DNA of 64,000 nucleotides from assembly GCA_964547225.1 (NCBI GenBank), contig CAZJMV010000113.1, positions 77,220 to 141,219 of the forward strand. Reading direction: 5' to 3'. Below the pieces are notes generated by a model, which was not told where the DNA came from, did no database searches, and worked only from the letters and a program-made list of their open reading frames with translations. Positions 57,680 to 60,820 of this stretch are shown in pieces (positions within the stretch are counted from its first letter, which is position 1; each line of letters begins with the position of its first letter). The position numbers were made by a program, and so were the translations under genes. This DNA is from an uncultured Anaerolineaceae bacterium (GTDB taxonomy: Bacteria > Chloroflexota > Anaerolineae > Anaerolineales > UBA4823).

Positions 57680-58291
57680 ATGTATAATCTGACAGAAAAT
57701 AGATATTGCAAAAAAATAGGTGAAAGATTGAATTTTCTTAGAAAACGATTACCAGAGAATAAAAAAATATTTCTTTTCTTTTCAGCTTGTGTTTTTCCAA
57801 TTCACCTATGGGCTATTATTCAATTCTTACGTGATATACCAAGTTATATTTTATGGTTAGATTGGTTCGAGATTTTTAGTGTATTTTCCTATACTCAAGC
57901 CATGGCTCTTTTTGAAAGCACGCTAACATTTTTAGTTTTTTTATTAATTGCCTTGATATTCCCTCATAAACTGCTCTTGGATCACTTCCCTTCACAGATT
58001 TCCTTATTGTTTTTTCTTACTGTGATATTAATCATCATTTATCATAGCTTTGGGACTTTATTCCTGGTAGAAGGTATGAATATAATAACCATCTTATTAA
58101 TACTTTTGGGATATTTTTTTATTATTTTTCTACCCTATGTAATAAAACTAGATCTTAAAAGATTTGATACTCTATTAATTGGACTATTAGAAAATTTAAC
58201 TGTACTATCTTCTTTATATCTAATCATCTCGATAATATGTTGTACTTTTATTATTTTCAGAATTATTGTTACTCAAATAAACTGGTTGTAA
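57680..58291 (+). CDS. Hypothetical membrane protein, about 5 TM
   Basis: Five hydrophobic segments; 3-nt gap to next gene. Confidence 0.7.
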   Translation: MYNLTENRYCKKIGERLNFLRKRLPENKKIFLFFSACVFPIHLWAIIQFLRDIPSYILWLDWFEIFSVFSYTQAMALFESTLTFLVFLLIALIFPHKLLLDHFPSQISLLFFLTVILIIIYHSFGTLFLVEGMNIITILLILLGYFFIIFLPYVIKLDLKRFDTLLIGLLENLTVLSSLYLIISIICCTFIIFRIIVTQINWL

Positions 58292-58294
58292 AAA

Positions 58295-59827
58295 ATGCAG
58301 CGACGTGACTTCTTAAAAATAACAGCGCTTTCATCATTATTATTTCTAGAGAGCAAAATCCATTCTTCTGATTTTTTAGGTATTTCAAATAAAGGAAATC
58401 CGAATATTCTAATTCTAGTATTTGATGCTTTTAGTGCACGTCATCTAACTTTAGCTAACTATGCACGTGACACCACACCCAATTTGACCCGACTTTCTCA
58501 AAAGGCAACCGTTTTTCATAATCATCATGCAGCTGGTAATTATACGACCCCAGGAACATCTTCGCTTTTGACAGGCGTTTATCCTTGGAAACATAGAGCT
58601 TTACATATTCGTGGAAAAACAACGCCATTTTATGAAGATCACAATTTGTTCAGTTTATTTCCTAAAGATTATAAAAAGTTCGCCTATACGCAAAACCCGC
58701 TTGCTTATTCCATTTTGTTTCAATTTCATAACCATATCGATCATCTTGTTAAAATCCCCGAATTAGCGGTTTATGCAGATTCAATTTCGCAATCCATTCT
58801 GAATCCAGATTTTTTTATTGCCAATGAAGCGGAATTGATCGCGATAAAGAGTGAACACAGTCCCCCCTCATCTCTATTTCTTTCGATCTTTGATACTGAA
58901 TTACGTAAGTTTTTTACAAATAGAATTTACAATTCCTTTTCAGGTGATTACCCAAGAGGAATAACAAGCTGTCAAATGGGAGTTCCTCACTCGCCTTGTT
59001 TCTTTTTACAGGACGCAATTGATTGGCTTCAAAAAACGCTTAACACAAATCAACAACCTTTTTTCGGTTATGTGCATTTGATGCCTCCTCATGCTCCTTA
59101 TAATCCTCCATATCCATACGTTTCCCATTTTGATGACGATTGGAAACCGAATAAGAAACCCGAGCATATTTTCAGTCTCGGAAAAGAACAAACCAATCTG
59201 AACAGAAAACGACGTTTTTATGATCAATATATCGAATTCCTTGATTCTGAAATTAACCGGCTTTTTAATTACTTGGAAGATAGTAACTTATTAGATAATA
59301 CCTACATATTTATTACTTCTGATCATGGAGAAATGTTTGAAAGAGGGATCATCGATCATCTAACACCGACGCTTTTTGAACCTGTAATTCATATTCCATT
59401 GTTCATATTTCAACCTGGTCAAAAACAAAGAGTTGATTTCTATCATCATACAAGCGCTGTCGATATCCTACCAACGATCCTTGATATCGTAGGCAATTCT
59501 ACAATTATGAATTGTGAAGGAGTGACCCTTCCACTCTCCGAACAAGAGAATTTTATTCGTGATCGAAATATTTACGCTGTAGAGGCGAAGCAAAATGCAA
59601 AGAATAAACCTCTCACCAAAGCATCTTTTGCTATGATAAAAGGAGACTATAAATTGACCTTATATAGGGGTTATCCTGAAACGAATGGTTCAGATTTATT
59701 TGAATTATACAATCTTGCAGATGATCCGGAGGAAATTAAAAATATATATAACCCTCAAGATCAAGCAATTTCAAAAAAACTTATTGATGAGTTGTTGGCT
59801 AATGTAGAGGCGAACAACACTATTTAA
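58295..59827 (+). CDS. Sulfatase/alkaline-phosphatase-fold hydrolase or transferase with Tat-type N-terminus and Thr nucleophile
   Basis: RRDFLK, LILVFD, YTTPGTSSLLTG, HLMPPHAPY, SDHGE, ELYNLADDPEE. Confidence 0.85.
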   Translation: MQRRDFLKITALSSLLFLESKIHSSDFLGISNKGNPNILILVFDAFSARHLTLANYARDTTPNLTRLSQKATVFHNHHAAGNYTTPGTSSLLTGVYPWKHRALHIRGKTTPFYEDHNLFSLFPKDYKKFAYTQNPLAYSILFQFHNHIDHLVKIPELAVYADSISQSILNPDFFIANEAELIAIKSEHSPPSSLFLSIFDTELRKFFTNRIYNSFSGDYPRGITSCQMGVPHSPCFFLQDAIDWLQKTLNTNQQPFFGYVHLMPPHAPYNPPYPYVSHFDDDWKPNKKPEHIFSLGKEQTNLNRKRRFYDQYIEFLDSEINRLFNYLEDSNLLDNTYIFITSDHGEMFERGIIDHLTPTLFEPVIHIPLFIFQPGQKQRVDFYHHTSAVDILPTILDIVGNSTIMNCEGVTLPLSEQENFIRDRNIYAVEAKQNAKNKPLTKASFAMIKGDYKLTLYRGYPETNGSDLFELYNLADDPEEIKNIYNPQDQAISKKLIDELLANVEANNTI

Positions 59828-59871: not shown

Positions 59872-59909
59872 AAAAAAAAGAGCTTGCTGGAAAGGTTGTA
59901 GCAAGCCCT
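59872..59909 (-). terminator. Intrinsic terminator of the peptide operon
   Basis: Minus strand AGGGCTTGCT-N11-AGCAAGCTCT followed by a T run, just after the stop at 59925. Confidence 0.8.
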
Positions 59910-59924
59910 TATTTCCCTAAATGT

Positions 59925-60122
59925 TTATATCTTTACACACTCTTGGCATTTAGGTTGAAATAGGTTAGATCCTTCTGTCTTTCCTTCACAAGATGAACAT
60001 AACCAATTCCCAGACCTAATTCCACTACGTATAATAAAACCAACTGATTTTTGGTCTTTCATTACATTATTTTGCGCTTGATTTCTAAGGTTAATACCCT
60101 GAAGTTCTTTATTTTGTCGCAT
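59925..60122 (-). CDS. 65-aa Cys-rich peptide B (leader-like IRSGIRSG; WLCSSC...KCQEC)
   Basis: AAGGAG SD overlapping the upstream stop; homologous to the neighbouring peptide. Confidence 0.8.
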   Translation of the reverse strand: MRQNKELQGINLRNQAQNNVMKDQKSVGFIIRSGIRSGNWLCSSCEGKTEGSNLFQPKCQECVKI

Positions 60123-60136
60123 AATTGCTCACTCCT

Positions 60137-60367
60137 TTATAATGTACAAAGCTCACATTTTGCATTTTGTAATCTCCCCTCAGCCACTTTTGTTCCTCGA
60201 CAAGATTTGCAGTTCAACCAAGGTCCAGGACCCATTGGATAATTTGGTGTTGGAGGAACAACAGGATAGGTGGGACTATCAGGTATATCCATGCAAACTA
60301 CTCTTCCCGCTTTCAATCCCGACCTAACTTTTAATGCAAGACGCTCCTCAGCATTATCTGGTTTCAT
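60137..60367 (-). CDS. 76-aa Cys-rich peptide A (leader-like VRSGLKAG; Pro-rich insert; WLNCKSC...KCELC)
   Basis: AAGGAG SD 7 nt before ATG 60367 (track over-extends to 60490); homologous to peptide B. Confidence 0.8.
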   Translation of the reverse strand: MKPDNAEERLALKVRSGLKAGRVVCMDIPDSPTYPVVPPTPNYPMGPGPWLNCKSCRGTKVAEGRLQNAKCELCTL

Positions 60368-60419
60368 AATCCATCTCCTTTTTTTAAATTTAAACCATTT
60401 GTCAACGTGTATTACTCCT

Positions 60420-60448
60420 ATTTTATGTGAATATGTTGATTTATACAA
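60420..60448 (-). promoter_or_regulatory. Probable sigma70 promoter of the peptide operon
   Basis: Minus strand TTGTAT-N17-TAAAAT, about 50 nt upstream of ATG 60367. Confidence 0.55.
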
Positions 60449-60820
60449 TACAACAAATGTCGGTTTAATTAGCGATAGTTTGTGTATCATTCTTTCTATG
60501 AATTATATTCACTGAAAGTGTAGGTCAGGTGATTACGTCTAATGGCGCTAGTCATGGGAAATTTAAAATTTGCTCTGAACCAGCGGCGAAAGGATTTTGT
60601 CTAGAATCAAATATTGAGTTTTCCACGTTAAATAAATTTAAATTCATCAAATTCTAAGAATTACAAAACAATAGTGATATTTGATTCATATATTGGATTA
60701 ATATTTTCTGAGGACTCATAGTTTTTCTATTGTAAATATACTCATTGAAGCATATACTAAAGAGAGAAAAGAATGTAAAGATTTTTACATCATGATACTA
60801 ATTCAGCATTAGGATATTTT

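Follow-up and report, generated by a model that had tools for sequence, protein, structure and literature searches.

A tandem pair of small Cys4 proteins from an uncultured Anaerolineaceae bacterium and a putative Ala/Ser-Gly leader that co-occurs with a C39 peptidase-containing ABC transporter

The 64,000-nucleotide stretch of DNA analysed here, hereafter the window, comes from an uncultured Anaerolineaceae bacterium of the phylum Chloroflexota (assembly GCA_964547225.1, contig CAZJMV010000113.1, positions 77,220 to 141,219), and holds on its minus strand two small genes arranged head to tail, termed A (60137-60367, 76 aa) and B (59925-60122, 65 aa). Translation of the two open reading frames (ORFs) gives MKPDNAEERLALKVRSGLKAGRVVCMDIPDSPTYPVVPPTPNYPMGPGPWLNCKSCRGTKVAEGRLQNAKCELCTL for A and MRQNKELQGINLRNQAQNNVMKDQKSVGFIIRSGIRSGNWLCSSCEGKTEGSNLFQPKCQECVKI for B. 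Each gene is preceded by an AAGGAG Shine-Dalgarno site on the same strand, that of A at 60375-60380, 7 nt 5′ of its ATG, and that of B at 60132-60137, 9 nt 5′ of its ATG, where it overlaps the TAA stop codon of A. An intrinsic terminator lies 3′ of B (59872-59908, minus strand), consisting of a G+C-rich stem of 9-11 bp, an 11-nt loop and a U8 tract; its RNA fold reaches -19.6 kcal/mol (z = -3.5) and 0/200 shuffled sequences were equally stable. The hairpin escaped a consensus terminator scan because its loop exceeds the loop-length limit of that scan. Since the stop of A overlaps the Shine-Dalgarno site of B and a single terminator follows, we infer that both genes are carried on one transcript. 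A sequence-only reading of the locus had regarded the pair as real genes sharing a putative promoter. The first point is borne out by the two ORFs, their ribosome-binding sites, the hairpin and the conservation of homologues described below; the second was not recovered, as no sigma-70-like minus-strand site reaches the scan threshold in the interval between A and the divergent htrA gene, and only sub-threshold matches such as TTGTAT-17-TAAAAT can be picked out by eye. This interval (60368-60820) is a 450-bp AT-rich intergenic region in the window, and in related contigs it is occupied by a called 58-aa ORF.

Both proteins are built from two blocks that they have in common. The first is a ten-residue motif, LKVRSGLKAG in A (L12-G21, 60305-60334, minus strand) and FIIRSGIRSG in B (F29-G38, 60009-60038, minus strand), and the second is a C-terminal module with four Cys (Cys4), located on the minus strand at 60140-60220 in A and at 59928-60008 in B (N39-I65, 27 aa). 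The Cys spacing is CxxC-x14-CxxC in A, within the pattern W-L-x-C-x-S-C-x-G-T-x10-A-x-C-E-[LV]-C-x-Φ, and CxxC-x13-CxxC in B. In B the module follows directly after the motif, and in A the two are separated by a Pro-rich stalk delimited from the alignments (P29-P49, 60221-60283, minus strand). Conservation was assessed from 24 A-type and 9-10 B-type homologues and is concentrated in the motif and the Cys4 block, with a variable N-terminal extension and a variable Pro-rich linker. Within the motif, the final Gly (G21 in A, G38 in B) is invariant in both alignments, and models of the motif match B; within the module, C53, C56, G58, C71 and C74 are invariant in A, and C42, C45, G47, G51, C59 and C62 in B. 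Family-wide, the motif can be written Φ-x-Φ-[RK]-[ST]-[GDN]-Φ-[KRH]-[AS]-G and the C-terminal block W-L-x-C-x-S-C-x-G...L-x-x-A-x-C-x-x-C-x-Φ, in which four Cys and one Gly are invariant. The C-terminal blocks of A and B are similar enough to be aligned by BLASTP (E = 0.002), and the two shared blocks noticed from the pair alone hold across the homologues of both types. In A proteins of other genera the motif is followed, ahead of the Pro-rich linker, by a 'VCY..[VI]NGxWYP' segment, which is degenerate in the copy of the window and resembles the YVNGVWYPD module of other motif-bearing proteins introduced below.

A and B are real, conserved genes of a small unnamed family. Neither protein matches any NCBIfam model at E <= 10 nor any Pfam family, the only trace being a weak match to the archaeal Zn-ribbon DUF5817 (E = 0.8), in agreement with the earlier impression that no named family was involved. 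AlphaFold2 models, computed from 17 sequences for A and nine for B, are of low confidence, with an overall predicted local distance difference test (pLDDT) score of 43 for A and 53 for B; the former contains a low-confidence beta-hairpin at residues 52-75 (pLDDT about 50) and the latter small strands (pLDDT about 60). Word-indexed searches returned two or three relatives each for A and B, and a profile search of 1.84 billion representative sequences found 18 proteins, all but three of them 65-108 aa long; a scan of the genome contigs with the first alignment gave no match. In a sample covering the order, the A family is present as one copy per genome in 10/401 genomes and 4/123 genera; homologues of A show 41-91% identity. 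The A/B pair is maintained in 7/7 loci of the window's own family (genera g1, g22 and g43), in one of which A is split from B by a GT87 gene, and the flanking genes are syntenic within that family. In a second family (f9) a shorter A-like gene, beginning M-[IN]-LKTG[IL]KAG, stands alone in one genus among other neighbours.

The N-terminal motif is not confined to A and B. It is basic and alternating and spans ten residues, Φ-[KR]-Φ-[RK]-[ST]-[GDN]-Φ-[KR]-[AS]-G; in the genome of the window (G000) a regular expression for it has 17 matches in six-frame ORFs, compared with about 1.7 expected from composition and a mean of 1.3 for 200 controls with permuted order. A 14-column hidden Markov model of the motif retrieves about 25 small ORFs from this genome, all with the motif at or near the N-terminus (in some cargo it begins at Met1) and dissimilar after the Gly. 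Since the motif precedes unrelated cargo and similarity stops immediately after it, it behaves like a targeting or leader sequence, and the idea of a leader joined to Cys-patterned cargo, originally drawn from the two paralogues, now extends to a modular leader with an invariant Gly preceded by Ala or Ser.

The cargo falls into four classes. The first is a family with six Cys (Cys6; CxxCxxxC...CxxxCxxxxC) present in nine copies and specific to this genome (G000:C103:3860-6604, C69:213-392, C42:301-474 and C190:4195-4422). Its leader ends ...IHIRSGLRSG, one of the nine copies carries an in-frame stop, and several lie at contig ends; no significant match was found in 40 relatives, and the family looks like a lineage-specific expansion. 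The second class comprises single LysM domains, the third proteins in which an 'ExCxxxRxYWK' head is joined by a Pro/Asn or Pro/Thr stalk to a 'GGGYVNGVWYxDxSGxC' end, and the fourth helical proteins. Several of these are brought together in a five-gene cassette of motif-bearing proteins (G000:C130:8361-9580 and C205:231-1504), which recurs in four other genomes and is known from several genera. It encodes a LysM protein, a protein of 'GGGYVNGVWYPDxSGxCG' repeats joined to a Pro/Thr linker, a helical 'NANQQA' protein, an 'ExC..YWK' protein that has a stalk and ends in the same module, and finally a 'CxxNLNKWRERYY' protein. When ten further motif-bearing peptides were compared with Pfam and NCBIfam, the only matches were LysM in the cargo and one sub-threshold match to Clo7bot, and a full-text literature search with six motif strings found none of them.

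The genome carries a single gene with a C39 peptidase domain (G000:C52:32992-35826), encoding a 944-aa ATP-binding cassette (ABC) transporter of the peptidase-containing type (PCAT) on a contig other than that of A and B, which accords with the expectation that any processing machinery would act in trans. Its C39 domain is well recognised (PF03412, 75.6 bits), and Cys26, His106 and Asp122 align to the catalytic residues of Clostridium thermocellum PCAT1, leaving the triad intact; the ABC core matches TIGR03796 and TIGR01193. The surrounding cluster (G000:C52:22000-40000) is conserved across at least six genera. The PCAT is flanked by a second ABC permease/ATPase of 729 aa, and nearby a 203-aa membrane protein that matches no family model sits in the position of an HlyD-type adaptor. 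The cluster also includes two pentapeptide-repeat lipoproteins together with a ParA/MinD-like ATPase and an SPFH/Band-7 protein, as well as small YtxH-like membrane proteins. It further encodes a PAS/GAF histidine kinase paired with a NarL-type response regulator. Beside the PCAT lies a 61-aa ORF that begins MKVRTEIKVGSG; such a motif-bearing ORF of about 60 aa, with the pattern MK[VI]RTxΦ[KR]AG-GLGD...TG.D...Y...TGKDCGC..RR..LN, adjoins the PCAT in seven genomes, namely this one and six further. To our knowledge this combination of genes has not been described, and literature searches combining PCAT with Chloroflexi or Anaerolineae returned no description of the system.

The distribution of this PCAT closely follows that of the A family and of the motif. 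Using its N-terminal 380 residues as query, orthologues with 47-64% identity were found in 16/401 genomes of the order, and all 10 genomes with the A family are among these 16 (hypergeometric p = 3e-16 by genome, 2e-5 by genus); in a direct comparison the PCAT was present in 10/10 A-family genomes and 0/12 high-quality controls. Only two further genomes out of 400 in a phylum-wide sample contain it. A motif model built from 40 sequences gave 0-21 matches per genome, with a mean of 8.2 in the 16 PCAT-positive genomes against 0.38 in 16 PCAT-negative genomes (Mann-Whitney p = 3e-6). At least two matches occur in 15/16 PCAT-positive genomes, and the difference persists (p = 0.004) for the five PCAT-positive genomes from which the model took no seed. 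A PCAT substrate may be linked to its transporter by adjacency or by strict co-occurrence, and for A and B the link is through co-occurrence. The restriction of the motif and the A/B family almost entirely to PCAT genomes, together with the motif-bearing ORF beside the PCAT itself, also lends strong comparative support to the earlier guess that AG and SG are cleavage sites of the double-glycine (GG) type.

We therefore consider it reasonably likely, from the sequence comparisons above, that A and B each serve as the precursor of a small peptide, exported through this dedicated PCAT. The motif would be a new type of leader recognised by the lineage-specific transporter, whose C39 domain would cleave on the C-terminal side of the invariant Gly, at G21 in A and at G38 in B, during export of the cargo. 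Cleavage of B would release a 27-aa product, NWLCSSCEGKTEGSNLFQPKCQECVKI, and cleavage of A a 55-aa product in which the Pro-rich stalk precedes the homologous Cys4 module. In the extracellular products, the four Cys would hold a small hairpin or knuckle together through either a metal ion or two disulfides. Known Anaerolineae are anaerobes, and an anaerobic life would favour free thiols and metal binding in the Cys4 unit. Where cleavage falls, whether the peptides leave the cell, how the core folds and what the peptides do are all things that we infer from sequence, and the products could act as a bacteriocin-like antagonist, as a signal, or as a component that binds metal or belongs to the cell surface. 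By analogy with known GG-leader regulons, antagonism is a plausible function, because the layout is the same, with a pheromone-like peptide, a kinase/regulator pair and scattered cargo operons. The conserved cassette with LysM and YVNGVWYPD modules suggests instead that at least part of the secretome has a role at the surface or in a matrix.

Several observations weigh against export of A and B by the PCAT. Canonical double-glycine leaders normally end in Gly-Gly, Gly-Ala or Gly-Ser and carry an upstream Leu(-12)-X3-Glu(-8)-Leu(-7) (PMC6363468). The motif described here ends in [Ala/Ser]-Gly, the reverse of the canonical order, and is followed by a variable residue; it has Arg or Lys at position -7, Val or Ile at -8 and no acidic residue, so that only the hydrophobic position -4 is kept. 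The system thus appears to work like PCAT-mediated export of GG-leader peptides but departs from canonical GG leaders on two sequence criteria. In addition, where the motif begins at Met1 the leader would be only ten residues long, shorter than that of any characterised PCAT substrate we know of. A and B adjoin the PCAT in no genome, one PCAT-positive genome (G155) has no motif match, and the structure models are of low confidence (pLDDT 43 and 53). The co-occurrence itself has to be read with care, as the motif model was partly built from PCAT-positive genomes, which introduces circularity, and the genomes are phylogenetically related, so the co-occurrences are not independent events and could mirror joint inheritance or island transfer instead of a substrate relation.

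A broader reading, which we hold as tentative and less likely, is that the motif represents an unrecognised class of secretion signal defining a whole PCAT-dependent secretome in some filamentous Anaerolineae, with A and B as extracellular metal-binding, cell-surface or signalling components and not as bacteriocins or modified peptides. The five-gene cassette, the lineage-specific Cys-rich families and the A/B Cys4 pair would then all be exported, the motif-bearing peptide of the cluster and the kinase/regulator pair would form its control system, and the whole would constitute an ABC-based secretion pathway for small proteins with a signal grammar of its own.

It is unlikely, in our judgement, that A and B stay in the cytoplasm as zinc-ribbon or zinc-knuckle proteins, such as regulators or nucleic-acid binders, in which the basic N-terminal hairpin is uncleaved and is no export signal and the association with the PCAT reflects shared ancestry. 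The CxxC-x13/14-CxxC spacing, with all four Cys invariant, is classically that of paired Zn(Cys)4 knuckles, a Gly behind the first CxxC is another likeness to such ribbons and knuckles, and the low-confidence models show short beta-strands; the proteins also have no Sec signal, the motif is basic and predicted to be strand-like, and the weak DUF5817 match points in the same direction. The motif shows in addition a superficial likeness to the N-terminus of ribosomal protein bL36, which no profile match supports. On the other hand, it is found on unrelated cargo, including LysM and the Pro/Thr-linked modules typical of extracellular proteins, its abundance tracks the PCAT across genera and two families, and the PCAT locus consistently includes a motif-bearing ORF. 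No known zinc-finger family matches A or B, and the module closes the protein at its extreme C-terminus, preceded by a leader and in A also by a Pro-rich stalk, unlike in known ribbons and knuckles. Other likenesses, to the C4 fingers of DksA/TraR, the KxYKxGKxW signal, encapsulin targeting peptides and the RGSGR pentapeptide of PatS, were set aside as they find no profile support.

The sequence-only reading had favoured ribosomally synthesised and post-translationally modified peptide (RiPP) precursors, and of this proposal the architecture stands and the dedicated modification finds no support. A leader distinct from the core and common to paralogues is indeed seen, in about 25 ORFs with diverse C-terminal parts, the A/B paralogues lie in tandem, and many RiPP pathways are served by PCATs (PMC6363468). 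One Cys6 paralogue is weakly like the radical-SAM-associated family TIGR04333, below threshold (E = 0.008, 16 vs 31 bits). Under this explanation the motif would be recognised by an enzyme encoded elsewhere, which would modify the Cys by thioether, thiooxazole or other chemistry, and the PCAT would come in only at the end, for cleavage and export. In about 10 loci from four genera the pair has no modifying enzyme beside it, and none is recognisable in the conserved PCAT cluster; the neighbours in the window are a sulfatase, a membrane protein and an HlyD-like protein, together with HtrA and GalT, and the absence of an adjacent gene for a radical SAM enzyme, LanM, YcaO or a RiPP recognition element (RRE), already remarked on, still holds. 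Nor do the precursors belong to a named precursor family (NHLP, Nif11, SCIFF, Clo7bot or other Cys-rich families). The core is conserved as strongly as the leader. The same leader also precedes LysM domains and proteins of 60-100 aa that look folded and are unlikely substrates of a maturase, and for this reason a secretion signal fits better than a maturase recognition sequence. Taken together, an enzyme-modified peptide seems quite improbable.

Two candidate maturases were considered and rejected, both being general to the order. One is a radical SAM/SPASM pair (G000:C130:12597-17037), 3-6 kb from the cluster of motif-bearing genes on the same contig, which consists of a radical SAM/SPASM protein and a paralogue without CxxxCxxC; the N-termini of both look RRE-like (PqqD-type) by eye, and no profile confirmed this. 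The pair is found in 27/28 genomes of the order regardless of the PCAT, and because of this wide occurrence it may be a separate, widespread system of peptide or protein modification. It adjoins a gene for a 593-aa membrane protein with a C-terminal Cys-Ala repeat (...GCACACACAGCACACAGGGR). The other is a sulfotransferase of about 200 aa (GLPRSGTS motif; PF13469/PF00685), encoded directly 3′ of B in genera g22 and g43 (L018 9072-9791, L029 9124-9747, L030 7963-8586, L031 10489-11097 and L032 9678-10283), where it still follows B even when the GT87 gene splits A from B. This position, with the Tyr-Pro motifs of the linkers, suggested tyrosine sulfation of the RaxX/PSY type, in which A would be a secreted peptide sulfated on its Tyr-Pro-rich linker and the convergently encoded sulfatase would reverse the modification, but this is very improbable, since the enzyme is a single-copy gene in 102/401 genomes and 47/123 genera (45-65% identity across the order) against the 10 genomes of the pair, lies 126 kb away beside unrelated genes in the window's own genome (G000:C113:10632-11201), and B as well as the short A-like forms of f9 have no Tyr-rich linker.

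Export of A and B by the PCAT, the account we prefer, can be compared with several known systems. Similar in layout are the GG-leader regulons of streptococci and lactobacilli, here those of class II bacteriocins and pheromones (ComAB/BlpAB/PlnGH; PMC7018657, PMC7595303, PMC6363468), in which a single C39 exporter handles the products of many small cargo genes, scattered and in part arranged as two-gene operons, a small peptide with a leader is encoded at the transporter locus together with a histidine kinase/response regulator pair, and the leader lacks a hydrophobic Sec core and has two small residues at its end. Their leaders, however, are acidic, helical and 15-30 residues long with a Gly-Gly/Ala/Ser end, whereas the motif here has ten residues, is basic and ends in Ala/Ser-Gly. 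The PCAT described here, of about 950 aa, also carries some 200 additional residues following its C39 domain, its cluster adds the second ABC subunit, the ParA-like ATPase, the pentapeptide-repeat lipoproteins and the SPFH protein, the cargo includes LysM and Pro/Thr-linked modules, and the host belongs to the Anaerolineae of the Chloroflexota.

A second parallel is export of peptides with NHLP or Nif11 leaders (TIGR03793/TIGR03798) by NHLM transporters (TIGR03796/TIGR03797, with the HlyD-like TIGR03794), which likewise combines two ABC subunits, one of them with a C39 domain, with an HlyD-like protein and serves many unlinked precursors with one common leader. TIGR03796 and TIGR03797 are the best or near-best NCBIfam matches of the two ABC proteins, but the scores are far below the cut-offs (187 vs 853 bits and 122 vs 709 bits), the precursors here have no NHLP or Nif11 domain, and neither a cyclodehydratase nor a lanthionine synthetase is linked. 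HetC of Nostoc PCC 7120 is a long PCAT (about 1000 aa) with an active C39 domain in a filamentous multicellular host, and is thought to export a signalling peptide (PMC10986499). It may be viewed as a functional analogue, being an unusually long PCAT in another filamentous phylum, with homology compared at the common PCAT core only; it differs in its N-terminal cyclic-nucleotide-binding domain and in that its substrate is unknown, while here candidate substrates are marked by a shared motif. Finally, PCAT1 of C. thermocellum with its cargo CtA (PDB 4RY2, 6V9Z, 7N87) comes closest to the C39 domain among relatives of solved structure (E = 3e-8), with aligned catalytic Cys, His and Asp, and CtA too is a small protein of about 90 aa and not a short peptide, although it has a canonical GG leader and is encoded beside its transporter.

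As for the genes around A and B, the pair is flanked by a sulfatase with a twin-arginine translocation (Tat) signal, the membrane protein, the HlyD-like protein, a LysM protein, HtrA and GalT. HtrA, the sulfatase and the HlyD-like protein were considered as partners and dropped, as their synteny is limited to the window's own family and they are absent from the f9 loci. On the opposite strand (57680-59827, plus strand), the gene of a 203-aa polytopic membrane protein overlaps the start of that of the 510-aa sulfatase-family protein, whose twin-arginine signal reads MQRRDFLKITALSSL. This gene pair is syntenic in related genera and convergent on the A/B terminator, which could act in both directions.

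PCATs are widespread, but most of their substrates have yet to be identified in groups other than Firmicutes, Enterobacterales and cyanobacteria, because cargo has been sought as canonical GG leaders encoded beside the transporter. The present analysis yields instead a searchable rule, namely that 15/16 PCAT genomes contain about 2-20 small, scattered ORFs marked by a short basic motif with an Ala/Ser-Gly end. It also carries a caution for genome mining, in that tandem paralogues combining a leader with a Cys-patterned core are not, on those grounds alone, a sign of a modified natural product. Confirmation of the rule would show that C39 exporters are able to read a leader very different from the canonical one, and compact Cys4, Cys6 and LysM peptides would become available for tests of antimicrobial, signalling and metal-binding activity. 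Anaerolineae are abundant in digesters and sediments, and dozens of their orphan small ORFs would then be assigned to the secreted fraction.

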